A stretch of 64,000 nucleotides of DNA from Escherichia coli. GTDB lineage: Bacteria; Pseudomonadota; Gammaproteobacteria; Enterobacterales; Enterobacteriaceae. Every line of letters starts with the position of its first letter. The stretch's first letter is position 1. Below are positions 3,290-39,243 of this stretch, piece by piece. The stretch lies in assembly GCF_041886205.1 (NCBI RefSeq), contig NZ_CP169029.1. One strand, 5' to 3'. The notes under the pieces are model-generated. The model saw nothing but the letters and a program-made list of their open reading frames with translations, was not told the DNA's origin and did not search any database. The position numbers and the translations under genes were made by a program.

Positions 3290-5791
3290 ATGGCCCTGAT
3301 TGTGGAATTTATTTGTGAGCTACCTAACGGCGTACATGCGCGTCCGGCAAGCCACGTTGAAACGCTGTGTAATACTTTTTCATCACAAATTGAGTGGCAT
3401 AACCTGCGCACTGACCGCAAGGGCAACGCCAAAAGCGCCCTTGCGCTGATTGGCACCGATACGCTGGCGGGCGATAACTGCCAGTTACTGATTTCCGGGG
3501 CCGACGAACAGGAAGCGCACCAGCGTTTAAGCCAATGGCTGCGCGATGAATTCCCCCACTGCGATGCGCCGCTGGCGGAAGTTAAATCTGACGAACTGGA
3601 ACCACTGCCGGTTTCACTGACCAATCTGAATCCGCAAATTATCCGCGCCCGCACCGTGTGCAGCGGTAGTGCAGGCGGCATTCTGACGCCGATCTCTTCT
3701 TTAGATCTCAATGCGCTGGGTAATCTTCCCGCAGCCAAAGGCGTTGACGCCGAGCAATCCGCACTGGAAAACGGCCTGACGCTGGTACTGAAAAACATTG
3801 AGTTTCGTCTGCTGGATAGCGACGGTGCTACCAGCGCGATTCTGGAAGCGCACCGATCCCTGGCTGGCGATACTTCCCTGCGCGAACATTTACTGGCAGG
3901 TGTCAGCGCCGGATTAAGCTGCGCCGAAGCAATTGTCGCCAGTGCGAATCACTTTTGCGAAGAGTTCGCCCGTTCCAGCAGCAGCTACCTGCAAGAACGT
4001 GCCCTGGACGTACGCGACGTCTGCTTCCAGTTACTCCAGCAAATCTACGGTGAGCAACGCTTCCCGGCACCGGGCAAACTGACGCAGCCCGCCATTTGTA
4101 TGGCTGATGAACTGACTCCCAGCCAGTTCCTCGAACTGGATAAAAATCACCTCAAAGGTCTGTTACTGAAAAGTGGCGGCACCACCTCACATACCGTAAT
4201 TCTTGCCCGTTCGTTCAACATTCCGACACTGGTTGGTGTAGATATTGATGCCCTTACTCCGTGGCAGCATCAAACGATTTATATCGACGGCAACGCCGGG
4301 GCGATTGTGGTTGAGCCAGGGGAAGCCGTGGCCCGTTATTATCAGCAAGAAGCCCGCGTACAGGACGCTCTGCGTGAGCAACAGCGTGTCTGGCTGACCC
4401 AACAAGCGCGTACCGCTGACGGTATCCGCATTGAAATTGCCGCTAACATCGCTCACTCCGTGGAAGCGCAGGCCGCATTCGGCAATGGTGCGGAAGGCGT
4501 TGGTTTGTTCCGCACTGAAATGCTCTATATGGATCGCACCAGTGCACCGGGTGAAAGCGAGCTGTACAACATTTTTTGTCAGGCGCTGGAGTCTGCAAAC
4601 GGACGCAGCATTATTGTGCGCACTATGGACATTGGCGGCGACAAACCCGTTGATTATCTAAACATTCCCGCAGAGGCAAACCCGTTCCTCGGTTATCGCG
4701 CCGTGCGTATTTATGAAGAATACGCGTCGTTATTTACCACACAACTACGCTCGATCCTGCGCGCCTCCGCTCACGGCAGCCTGAAAATCATGATCCCGAT
4801 GATCTCCTCAATGGAAGAGATCTTATGGGTGAAAGAAAAACTGGCAGAAGCCAAACAGCAACTACGTAACGAACACATTCCGTTTGATGAGAAGATCCAG
4901 CTCGGCATTATGCTGGAAGTGCCGTCGGTGATGTTCATCATCGATCAATGCTGTGAAGAGATTGATTTCTTTAGTATTGGTAGTAATGACCTGACGCAAT
5001 ATCTGCTGGCAGTGGATCGCGATAACGCTAAGGTTACTCGTCACTACAACAGCCTGAATCCGGCATTCTTGCGGGCGCTCGATTACGCCGTGCAAGCGGT
5101 GCATCGCCAGGGCAAATGGATTGGTCTGTGCGGTGAACTGGGAGCGAAAGGTTCCGTGCTGCCGTTGCTGGTCGGTTTAGGGCTGGATGAACTCAGCATG
5201 AGCGCACCATCAATTCCGGCGGCGAAAGCGCGGATGGCGCAACTTGATAGCCGCGAATGCCGCCAGTTGCTCAACCAGGCAATGGCCTGCCGTACTTCGC
5301 TGGAAGTGGAACACCTGCTGGCACAATTCCGCATGACACAACAGGACGCACCGCTGGTCACCGCCGAGTGCATCACGCTGGAAAGCGACTGGCGCAGCAA
5401 AGAAGAAGTACTGAAAGGCATGACCGATAACCTGCTACTGGCAGGCCGCTGCCGCTATCCGCGTAAACTGGAAGCCGACTTGTGGGCGCGCGAGGCCGTT
5501 TTCTCTACCGGTCTGGGCTTTAGTTTTGCCATTCCACACAGCAAATCAGAACACATTGAGCAATCCACCATCAGCGTGGCGCGTCTGCAAGCGCCGGTGC
5601 GCTGGGGCGATGATGAAGCGCAATTCATCATTATGTTAACCCTGAACAAACACGCTGCGGGCGATCAGCACATGCGCATTTTCTCGCGCCTCGCTCGCCG
5701 CATCATGCACGAAGAATTCCGTAACGCGCTGGTTAACGCCGCCTCTGCCGACGCTATCGCCAGCCTGCTGCAACATGAACTGGAACTGTAA
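3290..5791 (+). CDS. ptsA: Multiphosphoryl transfer protein (HPr-EI-EIIA fusion) of fructose-like PTS
   Basis: 833-aa ORF with an EI-like PEP-utilising core ([21 protein letters not shown]) and C-terminal EIIA-like domain; divergent from frwC. Confidence 0.9.
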
Positions 5792-5802
5792 AAGGAAACA
5801 TC

Positions 5803-6465
5803 ATGGAACTGTATCTGGACACCGCTAACGTCGCAGAAGTCGAACGTCTGGCACGCATATTCCCGATTGCCGGGGTGACAACTAACCCGAGCATTATCGC
5901 TGCCAGCAAGGAGTCCATCTGGGAAGTGCTGCCGCGTCTGCAAAAAGCGATTGGTGATGAGGGCATTCTGTTTGCTCAGACTATGAGTCGTGACGCGCAG
6001 GGTATGGTGGAAGAAGCGAAGCGCCTGCGCGACGCCATTCCGGGCATTGTGGTGAAAATCCCGGTGACTTCCGAAGGTCTGGCCGCCATTAAGATGCTGA
6101 AAAAAGAGGGTATTACTACGCTTGGCACCGCAGTGTACAGTGCTGCACAAGGGTTACTGGCCGCGCTGGCAGGGGCAAAATACGTTGCTCCGTATGTTAA
6201 CCGCGTAGATGCCCAGGGCGGAGACGGCATTCGTACGGTTCAGGAGCTGCAAGCGCTGTTAGAAATGCACGCGCCAGAAAGCATGGTGCTGGCAGCCAGC
6301 TTTAAAACGCCGCGTCAGGCGCTGGACTGTTTACTGGCAGGATGTGAATCCATCACCCTGCCCTTAGATGTAGCGCAACAAATGCTCAACACCCCTGCGG
6401 TAGAGTCAGCTATAGAGAAGTTCGAACACGACTGGAATGCCGCATTTGGCACTACTCATCTCTAA
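5803..6465 (+). CDS. fsaB: Fructose-6-phosphate aldolase 2 (transaldolase-like)
   Basis: 220-aa [36 protein letters not shown], transaldolase/FSA family. Confidence 0.9.
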
Positions 6466-7853: not shown

Positions 7854-8471
7854 ATGAAAGCTTCACTGGCGCTGCTCAGCCTGCTAACGGCATTTACCAG
7901 CCACTCCTTAAAATCTCTTGCCGTTCCACCAACCGTGGTACAAATCCAGGCCAATACCAACCTTGCCATCGCAGACGGTGCCAGACTGCAAATTGGCAGC
8001 ACGCTATTTTACGATCCGGCGTATGTGCAGCTTACCTATCCTGGCGGTGATGTCCCGCAAGAACGCGGTGTTTGTTCTGATGTGGTGATCCGCGCATTGC
8101 GCAGCCAGAAGGTCGATTTGCAGAAACTGGTTCACGAAGATATGGCGAAGAATTTTGACGATTATCCGCAAAAGTGGAAGTTAAAGCGCCCGGACAGCAA
8201 CATCGATCACCGTCGGGTACCTAATCTGGAAACCTGGTTTACCCGCCACGATAAAACACGCCCCACCAGCAAGAACCCCAGTGACTATCAAGCGGGCGAT
8301 ATTGTCTCCTGGCGATTAGATAACGGGCTGGCACATATTGGGGTGGTTTCAGATGGCTTCGCCCGCGACGGTACGCCGCTGGTGATACATAACATTGGCG
8401 CAGGTGCGCAGGAAGAAGATGTGCTGTTTAGCTGGCGGATGGTGGGGCATTATCGTTATTTTGTTAAATAA
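7854..8471 (+). CDS. yijF: DUF1287-family secreted protein YijF
   Basis: 205-aa ORF with N-terminal signal peptide MKASLALLSLLTAFTSHS; synteny. Confidence 0.8.
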   Translation: MKASLALLSLLTAFTSHSLKSLAVPPTVVQIQANTNLAIADGARLQIGSTLFYDPAYVQLTYPGGDVPQERGVCSDVVIRALRSQKVDLQKLVHEDMAKNFDDYPQKWKLKRPDSNIDHRRVPNLETWFTRHDKTRPTSKNPSDYQAGDIVSWRLDNGLAHIGVVSDGFARDGTPLVIHNIGAGAQEEDVLFSWRMVGHYRYFVK

Positions 8472-9403: not shown

Positions 9404-9496
9404 GAGAGATCCAGTGTGTAGTTTTCCTGTGGACACTATACGCCGGTAAAGAAACTTCAGCGACTGCCTGAAAGACAGTCGCTGAAGAAGGTCAGA

Positions 9497-11731
<2,235 letters not shown>

Positions 11732-12005
11732 TTATAATTGAATTAATCCACGGATGCGATAGTTGAGATCTTACATATTGTTGGTTAAAGAGATGTAGAT
11801 CAAATTGATCGTAATTAAGCTTTTTTGATTATGTCCGAATTCGGACAAATGCTTTATAAAAAAGGGTTTTAGCTTCATATCCTTCAAGTAATGAGGGAGA
11901 AAACAAGGCTGACAACCTTATTTTCCCGCCCTCATTTCGAGGCAGCATTTTGTGCTCTGTTTAAAATTTGTGATCACTGTGTGATTTTCACAAAAGCCAC
12001 ACTAT

Positions 12006-12899
<894 letters not shown>

Positions 12900-12945
12900 T
12901 TACCTCATCAATCGCTTGTTGTTATATGTTGTGTTGTGCACATCT

Positions 12946-12977
12946 ATCCATTTAGACGTCCAGATGTAAAGATGAAG
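12946..12977 (-). promoter_or_regulatory. Tandem met-box (MetJ operator) repeats upstream of metF
   Basis: agacgtcc agatgtaa agatgaag: three consecutive 8-mers resembling the AGACGTCT consensus, about 50-80 bp upstream of the metF start. Confidence 0.6.
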
Positions 12978-13307
12978 GAAAAGCCGCAGGGCGTCAACCG
13001 AAAAATGACCACTGATGGTGAGGAAAAATCAGGGAAGTTGAAATTTTTTCATCTGAAGAAAAAAACAGGGATACCAATGTTCAGTATGAGGTGAATATTG
13101 GGAAAATGCTGACGTTATTAATTTTATATTTATTTAAATGATGATTCATTCTGATTTATTTACTTAAAAAATGAATTATATTTTCAAATAAAACAAAAAG
13201 ATACTTTAAGCCTCTCCGGCCTCCTCGCTTTTAATTTTGAACCACTTCAAACAAATAATAAATTCCTAAGAATTAAGTTGCAGACAAATTATACATCCCT
13301 CACGATA

Positions 13308-13335
13308 AGTAGAACGTTCTAGTAGAACGTTCTAC
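13308..13335. promoter_or_regulatory. Tandem palindromic operator-like site upstream of the PTS gene
   Basis: aagtagaacgttctagtagaacgttctact: two abutting copies of a palindrome centred on CG (TAGAACGTTCTA); the second copy is a perfect 16-bp palindrome AGTAGAACGTTCTACT; lies about 55 bp upstream of the PTS start codon. Confidence 0.5.
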
Positions 13336-13389
13336 TTATATAAATAATCGTTCTTGCGCAGTCATCTGCGCTATTCGGGGGAAATCAGC

Positions 13390-14889
13390 ATGGGTCTGAT
13401 ATCGAGTGTCGTAAAATCACTTTCTAAACTGTCGATGATTGGTCGCGCGCTGATGCTGCCAATTTCGCTTCTGCCTGCCGCCGGGTTGTTACTGGCGTTC
13501 GGCGATAAATTCCACATGCCGTTGATGATGAATGCCGGCGGTATCATTTTTGATAACTTGCCGATGCTTTTTGCTATCGGTTCTGCCGTGGGACTGGCTT
13601 CAGAATCGGGTATTGCGGCGCTATCCGCAGCTGTATCCGTCTTTGTCACTAATATCACCATCGGTACTGTCCTTGGCATCACACCAGAGATGGCCGGGCA
13701 AGGCGGTAAATATGCGATGGTGGTGGGGATCCCAACGCTGCAAATGGGCGTCTTCGGCGGCCTGATATGCGGGGTTCTGGCGGCGTGGTGTTACAACCGT
13801 TTTCATACCATGCAATTACCAGAATTCCTTGGCTTTTTCTCCGGCAAACGCTTCGTGGCTATCGCGACGGCTTTTCTTTCCTTCATCCTTGGCTTGTTAC
13901 TGCCCTATGTCTGGCAACATATTCAGTCGGGAATCGATGCCCTATCAGTTATCGTCAATGGTGATAACCAGGCGGCATCGACCTTTATTTTTGGTGTGAC
14001 AGAACGTGCGCTCATTCCGCTTGGCCTGCACCACATCTGGTATCCATCGTTCTGGTACTCTTTTGGTGATTACACCACCCAGGCAGGCCAAATGATCCAC
14101 GGTGACCAAACAATTTGGTTCAAAATGCTGGAAGAAGGTGTGAAATCGTTCAGTAGCGACAGCTACCATAACGCGGGTAAGTTTTTACAGGGCGAGTTTC
14201 CGCTCATGCTGTTCGCGCTGCCTGCGGCGTGTCTGGCGATGTACCATGAAGCACACACCAAAAATAAGAAAATTGCCGCCGGTATTCTGTTCTCTGCCGC
14301 ATTAACCTGTTTCCTGACAGGTATTACAGAACCCGTTGAATTTACCTTTATTTTCGTGGCACCGGTACTGTACGTATTTAACGCGATAATGGCTGGCCTC
14401 TCCTATATGGCGATGTATCTGCTCCATGCCCACATTGCAAAATCCTTCTCGGCAGGGCTTATCGATTATATTTCGTTTGGCATCCTGCCATCATTTAACG
14501 GCTACGAAACCAACTTCCTGAGTGCCATTATTGTTGGCGTACCGATGGCGATTATCTATTACTTCACTTTCCGCTTTGTTATTCGCCGTTTTGATGTGAA
14601 AACACCGGGTCGAGCCGAAAGCACTGTATCCGCTAACGATAAAACCGATGATGAACTGGCTACGGAAATTATCAGTCTGCTGGGCGGCCAACAAAATATC
14701 TCTTCCGTCGCATCCTGCATAACGCGCCTGCGTCTGGAAGTGGCGGATAAAGATGTGGTTGATAAAGATGGACTGAACAATGTCGGTGCTCGTGGTGTGG
14801 TTTTCGTCGGCGAGAACGGCATTCAGGTGATTTTTGGCGCACGTGCACAATTTATCGCGCAAACCATGTCGACGATGATTGGCAAATAG
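13390..14889 (+). CDS. PTS glucose-family EIICB permease (substrate unknown)
   Basis: ORF-track entry 13354..14889; start placed at ATG 13390 (GGGGG 8 nt upstream). Multi-TM EIIC domain followed by an EIIB domain with the phospho-Cys motif SVASCITRLRLEV. Confidence 0.8.
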   Translation: MGLISSVVKSLSKLSMIGRALMLPISLLPAAGLLLAFGDKFHMPLMMNAGGIIFDNLPMLFAIGSAVGLASESGIAALSAAVSVFVTNITIGTVLGITPEMAGQGGKYAMVVGIPTLQMGVFGGLICGVLAAWCYNRFHTMQLPEFLGFFSGKRFVAIATAFLSFILGLLLPYVWQHIQSGIDALSVIVNGDNQAASTFIFGVTERALIPLGLHHIWYPSFWYSFGDYTTQAGQMIHGDQTIWFKMLEEGVKSFSSDSYHNAGKFLQGEFPLMLFALPAACLAMYHEAHTKNKKIAAGILFSAALTCFLTGITEPVEFTFIFVAPVLYVFNAIMAGLSYMAMYLLHAHIAKSFSAGLIDYISFGILPSFNGYETNFLSAIIVGVPMAIIYYFTFRFVIRRFDVKTPGRAESTVSANDKTDDELATEIISLLGGQQNISSVASCITRLRLEVADKDVVDKDGLNNVGARGVVFVGENGIQVIFGARAQFIAQTMSTMIGK

Positions 14890-21267: not shown

Positions 21268-22428
21268 TTACCCCTTGTTTGCAGCCCGGAAGCCATTTTC
21301 CAGGTCGGCAATTAAATCTTCGCCATCTTCAATACCGGTGGAGATACGCAGCAGCGTCTCGGAGATCCCGGCGGCAGCACGCGCTTCTGGTGCCATGCCT
21401 GCATGTGTCATGGTTGCGGCGTGAGAGATTAAACTTTCCACTCCCCCTAATGATTCCGCCAGCGTAAACAACGACAGCCCGCCCAGGAAACGACGCAGCG
21501 TCTGCTCATCGCCATCCAGTTCAAAACTCAACATTGCGCCAAAGCCTTTTTGCTGGCGCGCGGCAATTTCATGCCCCTGATTTTCTGGCAACGACGGGTG
21601 ATACAGTTTTTTCACCAACGGCTGGGTTTGCAGGTATTTCACAATCGCCTGCGCGTTGCGCTGCGCCAGCTCCATACGCGGCACCAGCGTTCGCAACCCA
21701 CGTAGCAGCAGATAGCTGTCAAACGCGCCACCCGTCACGCCAATATTGTTTGCCCACCAGGCAAGTTCAGTGACAACGTCCGGGTCTTTAGCAATCACCA
21801 CGCCGGCCACCACGTCTGAGTGACCGTTCAGATATTTCGTGCATGAATGCAACACCAGATCGGCACCTAATGCCAGCGGATTTTGTAATGCCGGGCTTAA
21901 GAAGGTGTTATCCACCACGCTCACCGCCCCGACTTCCCTTGCCAGATGGCAGATTTTCGCAATATCCACGACGCGTAACAATGGATTACTTGGGCTTTCT
22001 ACCAGTACCAGTTTGGGTTTTTCTGCCAGCGCTGCCCGTAATGCCTGTTCATCGCCTTGATCAACAAACAACACGCGATAGCAACCACGTTTCGCCAGGC
22101 TGTCGAACAGACGATAGCTACCGCCGTAGCAGTCGTGTGGCGCAACCAGCAGATCGCCAGGTTTCAAAAAGACGGTCGTTACCAGGTGAATCGCGGACAT
22201 GCCGGTATTAGTAAGTACTGCACCAGCACCGCCTTCCAGTTCTGCCAGCGCACGCTGAACCACATCGCGCGTTGGGTTGCCGCGACGCGAGTAATCATGC
22301 GCGCGCGGTTCATTAAATCCGGTAAAGTTATAGGTACTGGAAAGATGGATGGGTGGGACAACGCAACCATACTGTTCGTCGTCATTTAACCCGCTACGCA
22401 CTGCGATGGTGGCCTGTTTTCGCGTCAT
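21268..22428 (-). CDS. metB: Cystathionine gamma-synthase
   Basis: ORF-track entry 21268..22605 trimmed to MTRKQATIAVRSGLNDDEQYG (386 aa); PLP-dependent family. Confidence 0.95.
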   Translation of the reverse strand: MTRKQATIAVRSGLNDDEQYGCVVPPIHLSSTYNFTGFNEPRAHDYSRRGNPTRDVVQRALAELEGGAGAVLTNTGMSAIHLVTTVFLKPGDLLVAPHDCYGGSYRLFDSLAKRGCYRVLFVDQGDEQALRAALAEKPKLVLVESPSNPLLRVVDIAKICHLAREVGAVSVVDNTFLSPALQNPLALGADLVLHSCTKYLNGHSDVVAGVVIAKDPDVVTELAWWANNIGVTGGAFDSYLLLRGLRTLVPRMELAQRNAQAIVKYLQTQPLVKKLYHPSLPENQGHEIAARQQKGFGAMLSFELDGDEQTLRRFLGGLSLFTLAESLGGVESLISHAATMTHAGMAPEARAAAGISETLLRISTGIEDGEDLIADLENGFRAANKG

Positions 22429-22491
22429 GTGATGAAGTTCCCTGGGCTTTGTCGGTGAAATGTCAGGCACCAGAGTAAACATTGTGTTAAT

Positions 22492-22523
22492 GGACGTCAA
22501 TACATCTGGACATCTAAACTTCT
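22492..22523. promoter_or_regulatory. Met-box repeats in the metB/metJ divergent control region
   Basis: Minus-strand reading AGATGTCC AGATGTAT TGACGTCC: tandem 8-mers close to the AGACGTCT consensus. Confidence 0.55.
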
Positions 22524-22704
22524 TTGCGTATAGATTGAGCAAATCCCAAATAGCCGTTAAAATTATATGCATTATCACGCCGACAGGTGCATTACACGAT
22601 GTCACGGTAGCGCCTGTACGGTAAACTATGCGGGTTTACAGCCAGTGCCCACATTCACTGTGTGGTCTGGTCTCAATTTATTGACGAAGAGGATTAAGTA
22701 TCTC

Positions 22705-23022
22705 ATGGCTGAATGGAGCGGCGAATATATCAGCCCATACGCTGAGCACGGCAAGAAGAGTGAACAAGTCAAAAAGATTACGGTTTCCATTCCTCTTAAG
22801 GTGTTAAAAATCCTCACCGATGAACGCACGCGTCGTCAGGTGAACAACCTGCGTCACGCGACTAACAGCGAGCTGCTGTGCGAAGCGTTTCTGCATGCCT
22901 TTACCGGGCAACCTTTGCCGGATGATGCCGATCTGCGTAAAGAGCGCAGCGACGAAATCCCGGAAGCGGCAAAAGAGATCATGCGTGAGATGGGGATTAA
23001 CCCGGAGACGTGGGAATACTAA
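22705..23022 (+). CDS. metJ: Methionine repressor MetJ
   Basis: ORF-track entry 22567..23022 trimmed to [37 protein letters not shown] (105 aa). Confidence 0.95.
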
Positions 23023-23050
23023 AGCGGAAAAGAGCGGCGCGGAGTGGAAT

Positions 23051-23148
23051 CGCCTGATGCGCTACGCTTATCAGGCCTACGTCATATTGCAATTTATTGA
23101 ATTTGCACGAACTTGTAGGCCGGATAAGGCGTTCACGCCGCATCCGGC
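23051..23148. repeat. RIP/BIME-type element (inverted REP pair with IHF-site-like spacer)
   Basis: gcctgatgcgctacgcttatcaggcctac ... tgcaatttattgaatttgca ... gtaggccggataaggcgttcacgccgcatccggc. Confidence 0.8.
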
Positions 23149-23205
23149 ATAAACAACGAGCACGTTGTCTGCGACCCACCGCTTTTTATACATGGACGTT
23201 TAACT

Positions 23206-23814
23206 ATGAAAAACAGGCTGCTGATCCTCAGCCTGCTGGTTTCTGTACCTGCCTTTGCCTGGCAGCCGCAAACCGGCGACATCATCTTTCAAATCTCTCG
23301 CTCATCGCAAAGTAAAGCGATCCAACTGGCGACCCATTCCGATTACAGCCACACCGGTATGCTGGTGATACGCAACAAAAAGCCCTACGTTTTTGAAGCG
23401 GTCGGCCCGGTGAAATACACCCCGCTCAAGCAGTGGATCGCCCATGGTGAAAAGGGCAAATACGTCGTTCGCCGCGTTGAAGGCGGACTGAGTGTTGAAC
23501 AACAGCAAAAACTGGCGCAAACGGCAAAACGTTATCTCGGTAAACCGTATGATTTCAGCTTCTCATGGAGCGACGATCGCCAGTACTGTTCGGAAGTGGT
23601 GTGGAAGGTTTACCAGAATGCGCTGGGAATGCGCGTGGGCGAACAGCAAAAGTTGAAAGAGTTCGACCTTAGTTACCCGCTGGTTCAGGCAAAGCTCAAA
23701 GAACGCTACGGCAAAAATATTCCGCTTGAGGAAACGGTGGTTTCACCACAAGCCGTTTTCGACGCGCCACAACTCACCACGGTTGCCAAAGAGTGGCCGC
23801 TGTTTTCCTGGTGA
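23206..23814 (+). CDS. yiiX: YiiX (DUF830, predicted permuted papain-like amidase), secreted
   Basis: 202-aa ORF with signal peptide MKNRLLILSLLVSVPAFA. Confidence 0.8.
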   Translation: MKNRLLILSLLVSVPAFAWQPQTGDIIFQISRSSQSKAIQLATHSDYSHTGMLVIRNKKPYVFEAVGPVKYTPLKQWIAHGEKGKYVVRRVEGGLSVEQQQKLAQTAKRYLGKPYDFSFSWSDDRQYCSEVVWKVYQNALGMRVGEQQKLKEFDLSYPLVQAKLKERYGKNIPLEETVVSPQAVFDAPQLTTVAKEWPLFSW

Positions 23815-23834
23815 TACGACCAAAATTCAGGCAC

Positions 23835-23862
23835 AAAAAAAGCGCCGTGCGGCGCTTTTTTC
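23835..23862. terminator. Bidirectional intrinsic terminator between yiiX and rpmE
   Basis: agcgcc-gtgc-ggcgct hairpin flanked by an A-run upstream and a T-run downstream. Confidence 0.6.
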
Positions 23863-23874
23863 GGAAATCCGGTC

Positions 23875-24126
<252 letters not shown>

Positions 24127-24130
24127 CTAA

Positions 24131-26488
<2,358 letters not shown>

Positions 26489-26643
26489 ACCGCTCACGAT
26501 GCGAGGCGGATCGAAAAATTCAATATTCATCACACTTTTCATGAAAATTCTGTAACCGTTTTCACGCGCTATCTGCTAAAAATGTTGCCGATGTGAAGTA
26601 AACATGGATGTAGTACGCCTGACGTGCCAGGCGAGGAGTGAGT

Positions 26644-27669
26644 GTGAAAGCGAAGAAGCAGGAAACTGCCGCGACCATGAAAGACGTTGCCCTCAAGGCA
26701 AAAGTCTCTACAGCGACCGTCTCCCGAGCATTAATGAATCCCGATAAAGTCTCCCAGGCCACCCGTAATCGGGTTGAAAAAGCGGCCCGGGAAGTGGGTT
26801 ATTTACCGCAGCCTATGGGGCGCAACGTCAAGCGTAATGAATCCCGCACCATTCTGGTGATTGTCCCGGATATCTGCGATCCCTTCTTTAGCGAAATTAT
26901 TCGCGGTATCGAAGTTACGGCGGCAAATCACGGATATCTGGTGCTGATTGGCGACTGTGCGCATCAAAATCAGCAGGAAAAAACCTTTATCGATTTGATC
27001 ATCACCAAGCAAATTGATGGCATGTTGCTGCTGGGTTCAAGGCTGCCGTTTGATGCCAGCATTGAGGAACAGCGTAATCTGCCGCCGATGGTGATGGCGA
27101 ACGAATTTGCACCGGAACTGGAGCTGCCTACCGTTCATATCGACAATCTAACCGCCGCATTTGATGCAGTAAATTATCTATATGAGCAAGGGCATAAACG
27201 GATTGGCTGTATAGCCGGTCCCGAAGAGATGCCGCTGTGTCACTACCGCCTGCAAGGTTACGTTCAGGCGCTGCGTCGCTGCGGCATTATGGTTGATCCG
27301 CAATACATCGCCCGTGGCGACTTCACCTTCGAAGCCGGAAGCAGAGCAATGCAGCAGCTACTTGATCTTCCACAACCGCCTACTGCTGTCTTCTGCCATA
27401 GCGATGTGATGGCGCTCGGCGCACTTTCTCAGGCAAAACGTCAGGGGCTGAAAGTCCCGGAAGACCTTTCCATAATCGGTTTTGATAACATTGACCTGAC
27501 GCAATTTTGTGATCCGCCGCTGACAACCATCGCGCAGCCACGTTACGAAATCGGTCGGGAAGCTATGCTGTTATTGCTTGATCAAATGCAGGGGCAACAC
27601 GTTGGCAGTGGCTCTCGTTTAATGGACTGCGAACTTATCATCCGGGGATCAACACGCGCGTTACCTTAA
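26644..27669 (+). CDS. cytR: LacI-family repressor CytR
   Basis: ORF-track entry 26638..27669; start placed at GTG 26644 (GAGGAG 5 nt upstream) giving MKAKKQETAATMKDVALKAKVSTATVSRAL (341 aa). Confidence 0.9.
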   Translation: MKAKKQETAATMKDVALKAKVSTATVSRALMNPDKVSQATRNRVEKAAREVGYLPQPMGRNVKRNESRTILVIVPDICDPFFSEIIRGIEVTAANHGYLVLIGDCAHQNQQEKTFIDLIITKQIDGMLLLGSRLPFDASIEEQRNLPPMVMANEFAPELELPTVHIDNLTAAFDAVNYLYEQGHKRIGCIAGPEEMPLCHYRLQGYVQALRRCGIMVDPQYIARGDFTFEAGSRAMQQLLDLPQPPTAVFCHSDVMALGALSQAKRQGLKVPEDLSIIGFDNIDLTQFCDPPLTTIAQPRYEIGREAMLLLLDQMQGQHVGSGSRLMDCELIIRGSTRALP

Positions 27670-27760
27670 AGTAAACCTTTAAGACTGCCGTGACTGGTCA
27701 AAGGCCCGCCGCTTAAGTAACATGGCGGGCTGACGAACGAATAAATACAGCGAAACGATA

Positions 27761-28720
27761 GTGGCACAACGAGATTATGTACGCCGCAGCCAACCGGCAC
27801 CTTCGCGGCGAAAAAAGAGCACCTCACGGAAAAAGCAACGAAATCTGCCTGCGGTTTCTCCCGCTATGGTCGCTATTGCTGCCGCCGTTCTTGTGACCTT
27901 TATCGGTGGTCTGTACTTCATTACGCATCACAAGAAAGAAGAGTCCGAGACGCTGCAAAGCCAGAAAGTGACCGGAAACGGACTACCACCAAAACCAGAA
28001 GAACGCTGGCGCTACATTAAAGAGCTGGAAAGTCGCCAGCCGGGTGTGCGTGCGCCCACAGAACCTTCTGCCGGTGGTGAAGTGAAAACGCCGGAGCAAC
28101 TGACACCAGAACAACGTCAGCTTCTTGAACAAATGCAGGCTGATATGCGCCAGCAGCCAACGCAGCTGGTTGAAGTTCCGTGGAATGAACAGACGCCGGA
28201 ACAGCGTCAGCAAACGCTACAGCGCCAACGTCAGGCGCAGCAATTAGCGGAACAGCAACGCCTGGCTCAGCAGTCGCGTACGGCTGAACAAAGCTGGCAG
28301 CAGCAGACGCGTACGTCGCAAGCCGCGCCGGTACAGGCGCAACCGCGCCAGTCTAAACCGGCTTCTACTCAGCAGCCGTACCAGGATCTGCTGCAAACTC
28401 CTGCGCACACGACTGCGCAGTCGAAGCCGCAGCAAGCTGCGCCAGTTGCTCGTGCCGCTGACGCGCCAAAACCGACGGCGGAGAAAAAAGACGAACGCCG
28501 CTGGATGGTGCAGTGCGGTTCGTTCAGAGGCGCGGAACAGGCAGAGACGGTACGTGCTCAGCTGGCGTTCGAAGGCTTTGACTCGAAAATCACCACCAAC
28601 AATGGCTGGAATCGTGTGGTCATTGGCCCGGTGAAAGGCAAAGAGAACGCAGACAGCACCCTCAATCGGTTGAAGATGGCGGGTCATACAAACTGCATTC
28701 GGCTCGCCGCCAGGGGTTGA
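27761..28720 (+). CDS. ftsN: Cell division protein FtsN (SPOR domain)
   Basis: 319-aa ORF MAQRDYVRRSQPAPSRRKKSTSRKKQRNLP; Q-rich linker, C-terminal SPOR. Confidence 0.9.
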   Translation: MAQRDYVRRSQPAPSRRKKSTSRKKQRNLPAVSPAMVAIAAAVLVTFIGGLYFITHHKKEESETLQSQKVTGNGLPPKPEERWRYIKELESRQPGVRAPTEPSAGGEVKTPEQLTPEQRQLLEQMQADMRQQPTQLVEVPWNEQTPEQRQQTLQRQRQAQQLAEQQRLAQQSRTAEQSWQQQTRTSQAAPVQAQPRQSKPASTQQPYQDLLQTPAHTTAQSKPQQAAPVARAADAPKPTAEKKDERRWMVQCGSFRGAEQAETVRAQLAFEGFDSKITTNNGWNRVVIGPVKGKENADSTLNRLKMAGHTNCIRLAARG

Positions 28721-28744
28721 AACCCTCAAAATCCCCCCCATCTA
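28717..28744 (+). promoter_or_regulatory. Sigma-32-type heat-shock promoter of hslVU
   Basis: TTGAAA (28717-28722), 13-nt spacer, CCCCATCTA (28736-28744); followed by a 5'-UTR hairpin ccccgtac-tttt-gtacgggg at 28758-28777. Confidence 0.65.
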
Positions 28745-28812
28745 TAATTGCATTATGCCCCGTACTTTTGTACGGGGTTTGTACTCTGTATTCGTAACCA
28801 AGGGGTCAGCTC

Positions 28813-29343
28813 GTGACAACTATAGTAAGCGTACGCCGTAACGGCCATGTGGTCATCGCTGGTGATGGTCAGGCCACGTTGGGCAATACCGTAATGAAAG
28901 GCAACGTGAAAAAGGTCCGCCGTCTGTACAACGACAAAGTCATCGCGGGCTTTGCGGGCGGTACTGCGGATGCTTTTACGCTGTTCGAACTGTTTGAACG
29001 TAAACTGGAAATGCATCAGGGCCATCTGGTCAAAGCCGCCGTTGAGCTGGCAAAAGACTGGCGTACCGATCGCATGCTGCGCAAACTTGAAGCACTGCTG
29101 GCAGTCGCGGATGAAACTGCATCGCTTATCATCACCGGTAACGGTGACGTGGTGCAGCCAGAAAACGATCTTATTGCTATCGGCTCCGGCGGCCCTTACG
29201 CCCAGGCTGCGGCGCGCGCGCTGTTAGAAAACACTGAACTTAGCGCCCGTGAAATTGCTGAAAAGGCGTTGGATATTGCAGGCGACATTTGCATCTATAC
29301 CAACCATTTCCACACCATCGAAGAATTAAGCTACAAAGCGTAA
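28813..29343 (+). CDS. hslV: ATP-dependent protease subunit HslV
   Basis: 176-aa [34 protein letters not shown]. Confidence 0.95.
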
Positions 29344-29352
29344 GGATCTCCC

Positions 29353-30684
29353 ATGTCTGAAATGACCCCACGCGAAATCGTTAGCGAACTGGATAAGCAC
29401 ATCATCGGCCAGGACAACGCCAAGCGTTCTGTGGCGATTGCTCTGCGTAACCGCTGGCGTCGCATGCAGCTCAACGAAGAGCTGCGCCATGAAGTGACCC
29501 CGAAAAATATCCTGATGATCGGCCCGACCGGTGTCGGTAAAACTGAAATCGCCCGTCGTCTGGCGAAGCTGGCAAACGCACCGTTCATCAAAGTTGAAGC
29601 CACCAAATTCACTGAAGTCGGTTATGTTGGTAAGGAAGTGGATTCTATTATCCGCGATCTGACCGATGCCGCCGTGAAAATGGTACGCGTCCAGGCTATC
29701 GAGAAAAACCGTTATCGCGCTGAAGAACTGGCAGAAGAACGTATTCTCGACGTGCTGATCCCACCTGCTAAAAACAACTGGGGACAGACCGAACAGCAGC
29801 AGGAACCGTCCGCTGCTCGTCAGGCATTCCGCAAAAAACTGCGTGAAGGCCAGCTTGATGACAAAGAAATCGAGATCGATCTTGCCGCAGCACCGATGGG
29901 CGTTGAAATTATGGCTCCTCCGGGCATGGAAGAGATGACCAGCCAGCTGCAGTCCATGTTCCAGAACCTGGGCGGCCAGAAGCAAAAAGCGCGTAAGCTG
30001 AAAATCAAAGACGCCATGAAGCTGCTGATTGAAGAAGAAGCGGCGAAACTGGTGAACCCGGAAGAGCTGAAGCAAGACGCTATCGACGCTGTTGAGCAGC
30101 ACGGGATCGTGTTTATCGACGAAATCGACAAAATCTGTAAGCGCGGCGAGTCTTCCGGTCCGGATGTTTCTCGTGAAGGCGTTCAGCGTGACCTGCTGCC
30201 GCTGGTAGAAGGTTGCACCGTTTCCACCAAACACGGGATGGTCAAAACTGACCACATTCTGTTTATCGCTTCTGGCGCGTTCCAGATTGCGAAACCGTCT
30301 GACCTGATCCCGGAACTGCAAGGTCGTCTGCCAATCCGCGTTGAACTGCAGGCGCTGACCACCAGCGACTTCGAGCGTATTCTGACCGAGCCGAATGCCT
30401 CTATCACCGTGCAGTACAAAGCACTGATGGCGACTGAAGGCGTAAATATCGAGTTTACCGACTCCGGTATTAAACGCATCGCGGAAGCGGCATGGCAGGT
30501 GAACGAATCTACCGAAAACATCGGTGCTCGTCGTTTACACACTGTTCTGGAGCGTTTAATGGAAGAGATTTCCTACGACGCCAGCGATTTAAGCGGTCAA
30601 AATATCACTATTGACGCAGATTATGTGAGCAAACATCTGGATGCGTTGGTGGCAGATGAAGATCTGAGCCGTTTTATCCTATAA
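29353..30684 (+). CDS. hslU: ATP-dependent protease ATPase subunit HslU
   Basis: 443-aa ORF with Walker [16 protein letters not shown]. Confidence 0.95.
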
Positions 30685-30708
30685 TCGCGTTCAATCATTT
30701 TCATCATT

Positions 30709-30734
30709 GTTTGATGGGGCTGAAAGGCCCCATT
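30709..30734 (+). terminator. Intrinsic terminator after hslU
   Basis: tggggc-tgaaag-gcccca hairpin followed by ttttta. Confidence 0.6.
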
Positions 30735-30750
30735 TTTATTGGCGCGTATT

Positions 30751-31677
30751 ATGACTGAACAACAAATTAGCCGAACTCAGGCGTGGCTGGAAAGTTTACG
30801 ACCTAAAACCCTCCCCCTCGCCTTTGCTGCAATTATCGTCGGGACAGCGCTGGCATGGTGGCAAGGTCACTTCGATCCGCTGGTCGCCCTGCTGGCACTA
30901 ATTACCGCCGGGCTATTACAGATCCTTTCTAACCTCGCCAATGATTACGGCGATGCGGTAAAAGGCAGCGATAAACCTGACCGCATTGGGCCGCTACGCG
31001 GCATGCAAAAAGGGGTCATTACCCAGCAAGAGATGAAACGGGCGCTCATTATTACCGTCGTGCTCATCTGTCTCTCCGGGCTGGCACTGGTTGCAGTGGC
31101 ATGCCATACGCTGGCCGATTTTGTCGGTTTCCTGATTCTTGGCGGGTTGTCGATCATTGCCGCTATCACCTACACCGTGGGCAATCGTCCTTATGGTTAT
31201 ATCGGTCTGGGTGATATTTCCGTACTGGTTTTCTTTGGCTGGTTGAGTGTCATGGGGAGCTGGTATTTACAGGCTCATACATTGATTCCGGCACTGATCC
31301 TTCCGGCGACCGCATGCGGCCTGCTGGCAACGGCAGTACTGAATATTAATAACCTGCGTGATATCAATAGCGACCGCGAAAATGGCAAAAACACGCTGGT
31401 GGTGCGCTTAGGTGAAGTGAACGCGCGTCGTTATCATGCCTGCCTGCTGATGGGCTCGCTGGTGTGTCTGGCGCTGTTTAATCTCTTTTCGCTGCATAGC
31501 CTGTGGGGCTGGCTGTTCCTGCTGGCGGCACCATTACTGGTGAAGCAAGCCCGTTATGTGATGCGGGAAATGGACCCGGTGGCGATGCGACCAATGCTGG
31601 AACGTACTGTCAAGGGAGCGTTACTGACTAACCTGCTGTTTGTTTTAGGGATATTCCTAAGCCAGTGGGCAGCATAA
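30751..31677 (+). CDS. menA: 1,4-dihydroxy-2-naphthoate octaprenyltransferase
   Basis: ORF-track entry 30739..31677 trimmed in frame to MTEQQISRTQAWLESLRPKT; UbiA-family polytopic membrane protein. Confidence 0.9.
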   Translation: MTEQQISRTQAWLESLRPKTLPLAFAAIIVGTALAWWQGHFDPLVALLALITAGLLQILSNLANDYGDAVKGSDKPDRIGPLRGMQKGVITQQEMKRALIITVVLICLSGLALVAVACHTLADFVGFLILGGLSIIAAITYTVGNRPYGYIGLGDISVLVFFGWLSVMGSWYLQAHTLIPALILPATACGLLATAVLNINNLRDINSDRENGKNTLVVRLGEVNARRYHACLLMGSLVCLALFNLFSLHSLWGWLFLLAAPLLVKQARYVMREMDPVAMRPMLERTVKGALLTNLLFVLGIFLSQWAA

Positions 31678-31769
31678 CTGACAAATATCAATTAACAATT
31701 GATGATTTTGCCAACAGCCCACATAGCGCGATATACTGAAAATTCTCGCAGCAACTGAATGTTAAGCCT

Positions 31770-32255
31770 ATGAAATACGATACTTCCGAGCTTTGTGACA
31801 TCTATCAAGAAGATGTTAACGTCGTGGAACCGCTGTTCTCCAACTTTGGCGGACGGGCGTCGTTTGGCGGACAAATAATCACGGTAAAATGTTTCGAGGA
31901 CAACGGGTTGCTGTACGATCTGCTCGAACAGAATGGCCGTGGTCGTGTTCTTGTCGTCGATGGCGGTGGTTCTGTTCGTCGCGCACTGGTCGATGCTGAA
32001 CTGGCGCGTCTGGCAGTACAAAATGAATGGGAAGGTCTGGTCATTTACGGCGCGGTGCGTCAGGTAGATGACCTGGAAGAGTTGGATATCGGCATCCAGG
32101 CGATGGCGGCAATTCCGGTTGGTGCCGCTGGCGAAAGCATTGGCGAAAGCGATGTCCGCGTCAACTTTGGCGGTGTCACTTTCTTCTCTGGCGACCATCT
32201 CTATGCCGACAATACCGGGATTATTCTTTCTGAAGATCCGTTGGATATTGAATAA
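31770..32255 (+). CDS. rraA: Regulator of RNase E activity A
   Basis: 161-aa [38 protein letters not shown]. Confidence 0.9.
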
Positions 32256-32272
32256 GTATCTGCCATGCGTTA

Positions 32273-32300
32273 AAAGGGGAATTAAATTCCCCTTTTTTAT
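32273..32300 (+). terminator. Intrinsic terminator after rraA
   Basis: aaagggga-attaaat-tccccttt hairpin followed by a T-run. Confidence 0.6.
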
Positions 32301-32302
32301 AC

Positions 32303-32989
32303 ATGGACGTATTCATGCAGAATATTATTCTTTTATTTATATATTTATTGCTTATAGCCGTTAACCATTTCCGCTACAAATTTCTTTTATCTGGCAACGC
32401 GGGTGAAATGATTTTATATTTTGCTAACGTATTTTTTAACCCCCTTGCCTTATCATTTATTATCGCCACAATCATCTGTATAACGATAAAAAAAAGAAGC
32501 AGCCGCAGCTTTATTCGCGGCACTTGTTGGTTAATGGGATTATTTCTTATCTATAGCAGCTATATGGTGTGGGAACGACACAGCACATGGGATTATACTT
32601 TCCCGGGGCCAGGTATCACCGTCACGGTTCCGAGCAAACAGTGGGTTGCCAATATAGTAAAACAAGGACCAACCCTGGTGACTCGGGATGCCCATGCTAT
32701 TTTAGCTATTGTTGCCTTCTCACAAAATGAAGTCGGTGTGCATTCAATCGAGGAACTTACCGCGACTCAAAACGGAACTGCAGAAATGCATGTTTGTGAT
32801 GTTCAGGGATTTGCCTGCGCTTATCAGGAAGGAGTGCAAACAATGAGTGATGGCAAAGTAAGACATGCTATTTTCATGACTCTACTGGATAACACTAATT
32901 TGATACAACTGGTCGCAGCCATCGACCCAGATTATTTGGACGAATATCAAGAAGAAGTAATGAAAATGATGCTTTCTGCCCGTCCATGA
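32303..32989 (+). CDS. Hypothetical membrane-anchored protein, paralog A of a tandem pair
   Basis: 228-aa ORF in an AT-rich segment; hydrophobic N-terminal helices then a ~150-aa soluble domain; start may be the second ATG at 32315. Confidence 0.6.
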   Translation: MDVFMQNIILLFIYLLLIAVNHFRYKFLLSGNAGEMILYFANVFFNPLALSFIIATIICITIKKRSSRSFIRGTCWLMGLFLIYSSYMVWERHSTWDYTFPGPGITVTVPSKQWVANIVKQGPTLVTRDAHAILAIVAFSQNEVGVHSIEELTATQNGTAEMHVCDVQGFACAYQEGVQTMSDGKVRHAIFMTLLDNTNLIQLVAAIDPDYLDEYQEEVMKMMLSARP

Positions 32990-33021
32990 TCTGATGTGCA
33001 TGTTAATAATAAGGGATTGAT

Positions 33022-33738
33022 ATGAGATACGTTATCTTATTAATACTATGGATAATAACTGCTTTTCTTAGTCATCTTCAGCACAGCAACCTACTGTCTG
33101 GAGATCCTGGCATGGTTGGCGAGTATATCGGTTCAGTATTTCTGGGGCCGTTATTACTTCCCGTGCTTGTGTCAGGTATTCTGTGTGCATTCGCTAAAAA
33201 AACGCGTAACTTCGCCAGTTTTACTCGCGGGTGCTGCTGGGTATTGGGAGTCCTGCTTTTATCCAACGTCGGCAATACGTTTCGTATGTTCACCCCGTGG
33301 CACTATACGTTTGAGAAGGCAGCTATTTCCGTGACTATCCCAAACCGACACTGGAATACGGTTTCCATTCGTACAGATAAAACCATTGATATAAGAAGTG
33401 AAGATAATAGCGTCTTTATTTCTGCTTTCCGCCTGCCCGCAGGACGTAGCGCCGATGACTCGCTGGAAGAGTTAAAGAAGATGCAGCGAGACAATCTCAA
33501 GGATCAATACAATGAAGAAACCTTCCAGTTTCATGATTGTAATGCCAAACATTTCACCTGTAAGTATCAGGATGTGTTGATAAATTTTGATGGTCAGCAG
33601 AAAAGAACCATCAGTGTTTATCTTGAAGACACCCCCAGGGCTGTGGGGATCATTGCATTAATGGAGCCAGATACGGCAGATGAATATCGCCTACAGGCGA
33701 TGGAGATTATGTTGTCTGCTAAAAATGCAGCTAAGTAA
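33022..33738 (+). CDS. Hypothetical membrane-anchored protein, paralog B of a tandem pair
   Basis: 238-aa ORF with AAGGGA 6 nt upstream of the ATG; shares motifs with paralog A (LLSG, RGxCW, W-YTF, SVTIP, DEY---MLSA). Confidence 0.6.
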   Translation: MRYVILLILWIITAFLSHLQHSNLLSGDPGMVGEYIGSVFLGPLLLPVLVSGILCAFAKKTRNFASFTRGCCWVLGVLLLSNVGNTFRMFTPWHYTFEKAAISVTIPNRHWNTVSIRTDKTIDIRSEDNSVFISAFRLPAGRSADDSLEELKKMQRDNLKDQYNEETFQFHDCNAKHFTCKYQDVLINFDGQQKRTISVYLEDTPRAVGIIALMEPDTADEYRLQAMEIMLSAKNAAK

Positions 33739-33744
33739 AAAATA

Positions 33745-33762
33745 AGGCGCCTTGCGGCGCCT
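33745..33762. terminator. Hairpin between paralog B and convergent zapB
   Basis: aggcgcc-ttgc-ggcgcct, preceded by an A-run (T-run on the zapB strand). Confidence 0.55.
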
Positions 33763-33776
33763 CTGCATGGAAGAGA

Positions 33777-34070
<294 letters not shown>

Positions 34071-34327
34071 TTACCGGTGACGCCTTAATAAATACGAGCG
34101 CACTTTAGTTAGCTCCGATTGTATGAAGCCGCGCCATCGCTGTCCAGCGGCACGCCTTGCAGATTACGGTTTGCCACACTTTTCATCCTTCTCCTGGTGA
34201 CATAATCCACACCAATCGAAAATGTTAATAAATTTGTTGCGCGAATGATCTAACAAACATGCATCATGTACAATCAGATGGAATAAATGGCGCGATAACG
34301 CTCATTTTATGACGAAGCACACACATT

Positions 34328-34370
34328 TTAAGTTCGATATTTCTCGTTTTTGCTCGTTAACGATAAGTTA
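34328..34370 (+). promoter_or_regulatory. Putative GlpR operator repeats in the glpFKX promoter
   Basis: aagttcgatatttctcgtttttgctcgttaacgataag: repeated TTCGAT / CGTTAACGA half-sites, consistent with my recollection of GlpR operators; not mapped here. Confidence 0.4.
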
Positions 34371-34445
34371 CAGCATGCCTACAAGCATCGTGGAGGTCCG
34401 TGACTTTCACGCATACAACAAACATTAACTCTTCAGGATCCGATT

Positions 34446-36822
<2,377 letters not shown>

Positions 36823-38814: not shown

Positions 38815-39243
38815 TTACTTATCGATAAACGGCACGATGAGCAAATCCGCACTCATCTTATTGATCATCCCGCGATATGCCGGCATCAAACGGTTGATAA
38901 ATGAGTGATGATGACCACAGACAAGGAGGTCGCACTGCTCTTTTTGCATAATTTCCAGCAGTGTTTCCGGCATTTCTCCGCGTTCAATACGCAGTTTTGT
39001 CTTCGGCCATTGAATATTTTTCGTCAGTTTATACAGCTTGTTATCCGACTTATTCTTCAACAATTGAAGAATATCTTCTGTTGCAGGGAAGTAGATACCC
39101 GGATACAACTCGCTTAAGCCATCATCAATATGAATTAACGTCAGGTGAGCGTCATTATGTCTGGCGAGCTCCAGGGCTTTATTCACCAGTAAGGCATCTT
39201 CTTCATTCCCGGAAATTGCCACGCCAATGTGTTTATAAGCCAT
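38815..39243 (-). CDS. uspD: Universal stress protein D
   Basis: 142-aa [30 protein letters not shown]; Usp fold. Confidence 0.85.

Follow-up and report, generated by a model that had tools for sequence, protein, structure and literature searches.

Two exact copies of a 17-bp sequence, TTTTTATACATGGACGT, lie on the plus strand of a 64,000-nucleotide stretch of Escherichia coli DNA (contig NZ_CP169029.1 of RefSeq assembly GCF_041886205.1; referred to here as the window). Copy 1 (positions 23183 to 23199) is in the leader of yiiX, and copy 2 (positions 32294 to 32310) is at the start of a two-gene islet located between rraA and zapB. The analysis indicated that the two copies are probably independent binding sites of the type recognized by CsrA, each placed on a Shine-Dalgarno sequence behind the U-tract of a terminator, and that they are identical through shared constraint and some luck. 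The exact 17-nt identity would then arise because 5 positions are fixed by the terminator and 10 by the CsrA consensus, so that luck accounts for two loop positions (U and C) and for the absence of any spacing between U-tract and motif. An earlier note on this DNA had claimed the exact match at both loci, and an exact search of the window confirmed it; there were exactly two copies, and no third was found in the window even with up to two mismatches allowed. Each copy consists of TTTTT followed by ATACATGGACGT. Copy 1 ends 6 nt before the yiiX ATG (position 23206), as the note had stated and as the sequence and the open reading frame (ORF) bore out. Copy 2 starts 38 nt 3' of the rraA stop codon and contains an ATG (position 32303) that is the first in-frame ATG of the ORF of the first islet gene, paralog A.

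The consensus obtained for CsrA by in vitro selection (SELEX) is RUACARGGAUGU (Dubey et al. 2005, summarized in PMC7652899). Every SELEX ligand had ACA and GGA, and almost every one had GU; in most of them, GGA was in a hexaloop closed by AC/GU, with at most 4 base pairs (PMC7652899). An ANGGAN hexaloop is seen in RsmE structures (PMC7652899), and the peaks obtained for E. coli CsrA by crosslinking and immunoprecipitation with sequencing (CLIP-seq) are enriched for AuGGAug in a short stem-loop (PMC5694010). Both copies contain AUACAUGGACGU, which agrees with the SELEX consensus at 10 of 12 positions. Like the SELEX ligands, they have ACA, GGA, and GU; unlike them, they carry U and C at two softer positions of the consensus. 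At the islet copy, AUAC and GUAU could close an AUGGAC hexaloop with a 4-bp stem. In the yiiX leader, the CsrA-type site ACAUGGACGU (positions 23190 to 23199, plus strand) is a perfect match to the pattern ACANGGANGU, and its GGA (positions 23194 to 23196) forms the Shine-Dalgarno core. The covariation described below points to a candidate hairpin here, UAUAC-AUGGAC-GUUUA (positions 23187 to 23202, plus strand), with GGA in the loop and a U-U mismatch in this strain. At the islet, the predicted hairpin AUAC-AUGGAC-GUAU (positions 32299 to 32312, plus strand) has a 4-bp stem and an ANGGAN hexaloop; its GGA is at positions 32305 to 32307, and it also contains a perfect ACANGGANGU. The GGA is 9 nt from the yiiX ATG and 7 nt from an ATG of paralog A at position 32315, so that both copies lie in a 5' leader and overlap the Shine-Dalgarno sequence. 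The window contains 4 perfect ACANGGANGT sites, versus 1.35 expected. Two comparators are ACAUGGAUGU in the 5' untranslated region (UTR) of cytR (positions 26602 to 26611, plus strand) and ACAAGGAGGU in the 3' UTR of fpr (positions 38921 to 38930, plus strand), both of them perfect sites. An Rfam search over positions 22000 to 35000 at an E value of ≤1 gave no model overlapping either copy; the only hits nearby were ClpQY_promoter, the L31 leader, and small RNA models derived from repetitive extragenic palindromic (REP) sequences.

Support for CsrA contact came from the CLIP-seq data of Potts et al. 2017, obtained in E. coli K-12 with a mean read length of 17 nt (Supplementary Data 1, PMC5694010). 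Peak_403 (K-12 positions 4127842 to 4128117, minus strand; log fold change, 2.11; adjusted P value, 2e-16) includes the yiiX copy, in the sequence ...CCACCGCUUUUUAUACAUGGACGUUUAACUAUG... (PMC5694010). Its summit corresponds to position 23205 of the window, 1 nt ahead of the yiiX start codon; the first G of GGA is 11 nt 5' of the summit. Elsewhere in the genome, the same sequence was also found at or near summits. Peak_409, in rpoB, contains ACAUGGACGU within a 13-mer, UACAUGGACGUAU, that is the same as in the islet copy, with the first G of GGA at the summit; peak_300, in tdcC, contains ACAUGGACGU with the summit 6 nt away. Near-identical sites in ribosome-binding regions were found in peak_428 of yjfL (ACAAGGACGUUUA / UUACAAGGACGUUUACAAUG, where the summit coincides with the first G of GGA) and in peak_386 of yigG (AUACAAGGAUGU). 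The yjfL and yigG sites thus resemble the two leader copies in overlapping the ribosome-binding region, whereas those in rpoB and tdcC differ from them in being located inside coding sequence. Of the perfect sites in the window, K-12 has three (in the yiiX leader, the cytR 5' UTR, and the fpr 3' UTR), and each of them was inside a CLIP peak, the cytR site in peak_402 with the summit 30 nt off and the fpr site in peak_400 with the first G of GGA at the summit. In the K-12 region matching the window, peaks 399 to 404 total about 847 nt, or 0.68% of strand positions, and by our own arithmetic the chance of finding three of three sites within them is about 3e-7.

Next to the CLIP data stands the conservation of the motif. 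Ten yiiX leaders from seven genera were aligned; four were from Escherichia, and leaders from C. freundii, Klebsiella spallanzanii, Pseudocitrobacter, Phytobacter, Intestinirhabdus, and Leminorella were also included. ACA and GT were the same in all ten and GGA in nearly all; the variable parts included both N positions, the T-run, and the ATAC prefix. In a five-pair stem around the loop, 83% of the alignment cells can pair, versus 24 to 38% with a slid partner. The covariation score of the stem was 0.329 versus 0.104 in shuffles, and none of 500 shuffles reached 0.329; the outer two pairs change on both sides. The hairpin was found in the minimum free energy (MFE) folds of the Pseudocitrobacter, Klebsiella, and Citrobacter leaders. 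In Leminorella, the hairpin CAAC-ACAGGAC-GUUG is kept though yiiX does not adjoin metJ there. Conservation does not extend to the 17-nt identity itself: other yiiX leaders of E. coli deviate from the 17-mer, and the GTDB representative of E. coli has no exact copy. O157:H7 carries the islet, and with the yiiX leader TTTTTTCATACAAGGACGT it has two differences between its two copies.

In the islet leader, the pattern TTTTTTATACA.GGA.GTAT is kept in E. albertii, in Superficieibacter, and at the diverged islet locus of an enterobacterium, labeled L031, while the terminator stem and the coding sequence diverge. At L031, where paralog A is 51% identical, the leader AUACAAGGAUGU matches the SELEX consensus at 12 of 12 positions. 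The motif was lost in both loci seen without an intact paralog A. In strain N96 (L041, positions 2540 to 2760), it is deleted together with paralog A, leaving about 190 nt of AT-rich spacer and only paralog B; at L043 (about positions 330 to 528), it has become AUAUAUGGACGU, with ACA changed to AUA, beside a six-codon remnant of paralog A.

The T-run ahead of each copy, which had been noted earlier, proved to be the U-tract of an intrinsic terminator. At both the metJ and the rraA sides, a G+C-rich hairpin with a U-tract follows the stop codon. The metJ terminator (positions 23033 to 23187, plus strand) has the arms AGCGGC (positions 23033 to 23038) and ACCGCT plus T5 (positions 23178 to 23187). 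It was recognized from its fold and from an alignment with strains free of a bacterial interspersed mosaic element (BIME), which also gave the role of the T-run in copy 1. In the BIME-free strains, the hairpin is uninterrupted (AGCGGCGCGGAGTTAACCAGCCGCTTTTTT; fold, -21.6 kcal/mol); downstream of the metJ stop codon, Escherichia sp. E1V33 and E. coli without the BIME have AGCGGCGCGGAGTTAACCAGCCGC, T6-7, and the motif, in this order. A BIME of two REP copies (positions 23052 to 23081 and 23113 to 23149) splits the terminator loop from position 23052 to 23149 in K-12, in the strain studied here, and in about half of E. coli. That the 17-mer might be part of this REP/BIME was considered and rejected: the REPs end at position 23149, the 17-mer starts at position 23183, and it is present also in BIME-free strains. 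After rraA, an islet-specific terminator detected by a terminator scan and folding (positions 32272 to 32298, plus strand) consists of AAAAGGGGAATT-A-AATTCCCCTTTT followed by T6. It is a 12-nt perfect inverted repeat whose stem sequence changes between genera with the pairing kept. A sigma-70 scan found a promoter-like site at neither copy of the 17-mer. As a separate observation, four of the five uninterrupted metJ terminators that were folded (loci L028, L019, L035, L037, and L038), all but that of Intestinirhabdus, carry a further GGA in the loop region, about 30 nt upstream of the one in the Shine-Dalgarno sequence; this spacing falls inside the published range of 10 to 63 nt over which CsrA bridges two GGA sites (PMC7652899). 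In K. spallanzanii, an upstream GGCUCA-UGGA-UGAGCC hairpin was seen between metJ and yiiX.

If the two copies act as CsrA sites, transcripts reading through the terminator would carry the site, a CsrA dimer on it would block access to the ribosome-binding site, and both yiiX and islet paralog A would undergo less translation initiation. CsrA binding at the islet copy, read-through transcription into the islet, and the repressive outcome are inferred; the yiiX site is already in the published CLIP data, and the islet site is a new prediction made from the sequence. Among the closest known arrangements is the hfq leader (a 2007 study cited in PMC7652899), which, like both copies, has one GGA site on the Shine-Dalgarno sequence a few nucleotides before the start codon, with competition with the ribosome as the expected outcome. 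They differ in that binding and repression were demonstrated biochemically for hfq, whereas here there is CLIP crosslinking for yiiX only and the islet site is predicted. The earlier suggestion of a shared regulatory or 5'-leader element thus found support in substance, since both copies are on a ribosome-binding site and match the CsrA consensus and the yiiX copy has CLIP support, but they are not copies of one element.

Several observations weigh against this interpretation. In the csrA mutant, at mid-exponential phase in LB, yiiX showed no significant change in ribosome footprints, RNA level, or half-life (Supplementary Data 2, PMC5694010); its translation efficiency rose by 0.38 log2, which was not significant, and yiiX is outside the Edwards, Kulkarni, and Sowa target sets (PMC5694010). 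No csrA-dependent change in yiiX expression was thus detected in these data. According to the authors of that study, many genuine CsrA targets, hfq included, were likewise nonsignificant (PMC5694010). Peak_403 is broad (276 nt): REPs and several further GGAs lie under it, and the summit adjoins the motif without falling on it. The islet copy is outside CLIP coverage, K-12 being without the islet, and its sole support is the identical 13-mer at the rpoB summit. Both E. coli copies deviate from the SELEX consensus at two positions (U for R and C for U). The MFE fold of the islet copy pairs CAUGGA with UUCAUG instead of AUAC with GUAU; the yiiX stem has its U-U mismatch, and the MFE folds of the E. 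coli copies take other weak pairings. There is no promoter-like site between the rraA terminator and the ATG at position 32315, so that expression would rely on read-through. Finally, a Shine-Dalgarno role alone must require conservation of GGA. No yiiX entry was present in the Salmonella CsrA supplement (PMC6347204). A full-text literature search with the 12-mer, or with yiiX and CsrA, returned no paper, and the evidence on yiiX was in supplementary tables only.

The 17-mer was also sought in a collection of 100,044 species, where it occurred at 24 loci; our estimate for chance was about 35. Three of the 24 were enterobacterial, namely, two yiiX leaders and the Superficieibacter islet, and the two other Escherichia species in the scan had one match each. 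Seven of the 24 loci were tandem arrays in marine gammaproteobacteria, with a 52-nt unit that opens with TTTATACATGGACGTATTTATCC. These arrays (L008, positions 8095 to 8369; L015, positions 4478 to 4600, minus strand; L003, L007, L013, L014, and L017) were in Thalassotalea, Marinobacterium, Shewanella atlantica, and Algicola. Each unit contains two short hairpins (NNAC-A.GGA.-GUN'N'), whose loops read A(U/G)GGA(C/U/G) and whose stems differ. At L008, a stretch of about 300 nt has 10 perfect ACANGGANGU sites, all on the same strand; the other has none. The arrays gave no Rfam match, and the UvrY/GacA box, TGTAAGN6CTTACA (PMC3171408), was not found within 400 nt upstream of them. With many GGA hairpins in a row on one strand, they resemble sponge RNAs of the CsrB/RsmZ type, from which they differ in their strictly tandem 52-nt units and in having neither a UvrY/GacA box nor an Rfam match. 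Judged by these sequence features, the arrays may represent an undescribed repeat RNA that titrates CsrA/RsmA. Their likeness to the 17-mer would exist because both follow the same protein-binding consensus. That they stand behind T-runs was a consequence of the search pattern.

How much weight the bare identity can bear depends on how often such matches arise. The earlier note had called an exact 17-mer match very unlikely by chance, which fails for an all-against-all comparison. In order-1 to order-5 Markov shuffles of the window, the mean number of exact direct 17-mers was 0.20 to 0.52, and 18 to 42% of the shuffles had at least one; an expectation of zero is valid solely for one prespecified pattern. 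Two more exact direct 17-mers outside the REPs were found in the window, both in coding sequence (10074 to 10090/19773 to 19789 and 31992 to 32008/56176 to 56192). They look like chance repeats and provide an internal control for match frequency. The shuffles and these two pairs favor a plain coincidence of two ordinary ribosome-binding regions, with GGA being merely a Shine-Dalgarno sequence and CsrA having no meaningful role, and so do the unchanged expression of yiiX in the csrA mutant and the weakness of the hairpin in E. coli. However, such a coincidence would account neither for the CLIP summit beside the yiiX motif and the summits on identical sequence elsewhere nor for the invariance of ACA and GU, which a Shine-Dalgarno sequence does not need, in the 10 yiiX leaders. 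The retention of ACA, GGA, and GU in the aligned islet leaders, the covarying yiiX stem, and the presence in peaks of all three perfect sites shared with K-12 also argue against it, and we consider it unlikely. At the other extreme, the two copies could be truly homologous, a segment having been copied between the yiiX and islet leaders by microconversion or by illegitimate recombination when the islet was placed. The exact 17 nt, the same strand, and the same placement relative to a start codon would fit such an origin. Yet the identity ends abruptly at the borders of the 17-mer, the left and right flanks being identical at 8 of 50 and 16 of 50 positions, which is the random level, and extended homology of the flanks was looked for without any being found. 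Compared with K-12, the islet has its breakpoints at the stop codons of rraA and zapB; each copy has long been part of its own lineage and also occurs in other genera, and O157:H7, the largest islet-bearing lineage seen, has the two differences noted above. Common descent is therefore very improbable, and the idea that the repeat was left behind by the recombination that brought in the islet finds no support.

A third possibility is that the CsrA hairpin abutting a U-tract acts as a unit, with the zero spacing under selection. Such a composite module may gate or stabilize read-through transcripts or combine with the GGA in the loop of the terminator so that two sites are bound. In E. coli, both sites directly adjoin a U-tract, the metJ-loop GGA is within the bridging range in four of the five folded terminators, and the marine arrays likewise begin at terminators. 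But other yiiX leaders have 5 to 15 nt of unrelated sequence between U-tract and motif, Leminorella keeps the hairpin without the metJ terminator, the search pattern itself required T-runs at the marine loci, and the site is transcribed only once the termination decision has already been made. This proposal is very unlikely; its broader form, in which the abutting hairpin and U-tract constitute a selected, reusable module for Csr-controlled read-through and the marine arrays are an undescribed titrating RNA built of the same unit, seems quite unlikely. The earlier note had also raised a short mobile-element terminus, on the basis of the window. That the 17-mer is the end of a small mobile or repeated element inserting behind terminators is extremely unlikely. 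The seven marine loci, where the same sequence opens a repeated 52-nt element right behind a terminator, would be in its favor, but the likeness to the marine unit is confined to the CsrA-like part, and the marine units are built of ANGGAN hairpins. In Escherichia, moreover, the context occurs once per genome: the 80-nt context was found once in each of 679 E. coli genomes. There is no matching repeat at the other islet end, and the islet contains no transposase or integrase. A DNA operator, for example, for the neighboring repressor MetJ, is equally hard to credit. GGACGT resembles the core of the met box (AGACGTCT) and yiiX adjoins metJ, but the best match to two tandem boxes was 8 of 16 at both loci, versus 12 of 16 at the metJ-metB operators (positions 22492 to 22523).

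With two independent CsrA-type sites as the probable explanation, an unexplained repeat becomes a testable regulatory prediction. If it is true, an orphan two-gene islet and the enzyme YiiX are under translational Csr control. Exact short repeats between gene starts can stem from the consensus of a shared RNA-binding protein, without common descent, and this source of repeats calls for caution in genome repeat scans. The gain is modest in that CsrA has hundreds of targets and yiiX was already in the CLIP-seq supplementary data.

The gene behind copy 1, yiiX (positions 23206 to 23814, plus strand; K-12 b3937), encodes a permuted papain-like enzyme of the Peptidase_C92 family (ORF; Pfam PF05708; E value, 6e-48). 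In O157:H7 PV15-279 (L047, positions 9418 to 14686), an rhsC element and a remnant of insertion sequence IS1 lie between rpmE and yiiX, so that the distance from yiiX to the islet is unlike that in the window.

The islet is present in 677 to 679 of 5,426 complete E. coli genomes (about 12%), O157:H7 and O55:H7 included. K-12 has no islet; relative to K-12, the window has the rraA-zapB intergenic region replaced in its entirety, between the two stop codons. Paralog A (224 amino acids; positions 32315 to 32989, plus strand) was annotated by the Prokaryotic Genome Annotation Pipeline (PGAP). The earlier note had called the ATG at position 32303 its first in-frame start codon; this ATG is indeed the first in frame, but the start is probably at position 32315, as in the PGAP annotation, because the L031 sequence has AAG in place of the first ATG. 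Paralog B (238 amino acids; positions 33022 to 33738, plus strand) is an ORF from the ATG at position 33022, and its PGAP start at position 33112 looks too short. The 30 N-terminal residues encoded from position 33022 can be aligned with paralog A and with every homologue, and they make up the first membrane helix. Leaders of B-type genes have a common (A/U)AGGGAU ahead of the ATG.

A profile search gave 35 family representatives at an E value of ≤1e-3 among 1.84 billion, indicating a very rare orphan family; a word-based homologue search with paralog A returned only Escherichia and one sequence at 51% identity. Members of the family are directly downstream of rraA in all the loci examined, with the exception of one distant member (L044), and the family has two invariant cysteines. 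Paralog A is predicted to have three transmembrane helices and a PsbP/DcrB-like domain; its AlphaFold model (predicted local distance difference test score, 81; Foldseek match to PsbP with an E value of 6.5e-6) combines these helices with an alpha-beta domain resembling PsbP, DcrB, Tsi3, and EagT6. Pfam, NCBIfam, and PADLOC assigned neither islet protein to a family above threshold, and a literature search with the guessed O157 locus tags Z5474, Z5475, ECs4854, and ECs4855 returned no relevant paper. The PGAP annotation of the islet contains no mobility gene, and a search for terminal direct or inverted repeats of the islet found terminator palindromes only. At L031 (positions 5761 to 6072; Sequence Read Archive run ERR9539427), a gene for a Y1 (IS200-like) transposase is present between the islet and zapB. 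At the zapB end of the islet in the window, the last codons of zapB pair with the adjoining islet sequence in a 14-nt inverted repeat, GCATGGAAGAGATT / AACCTCTTCCATGC (positions 33765 to 33793).

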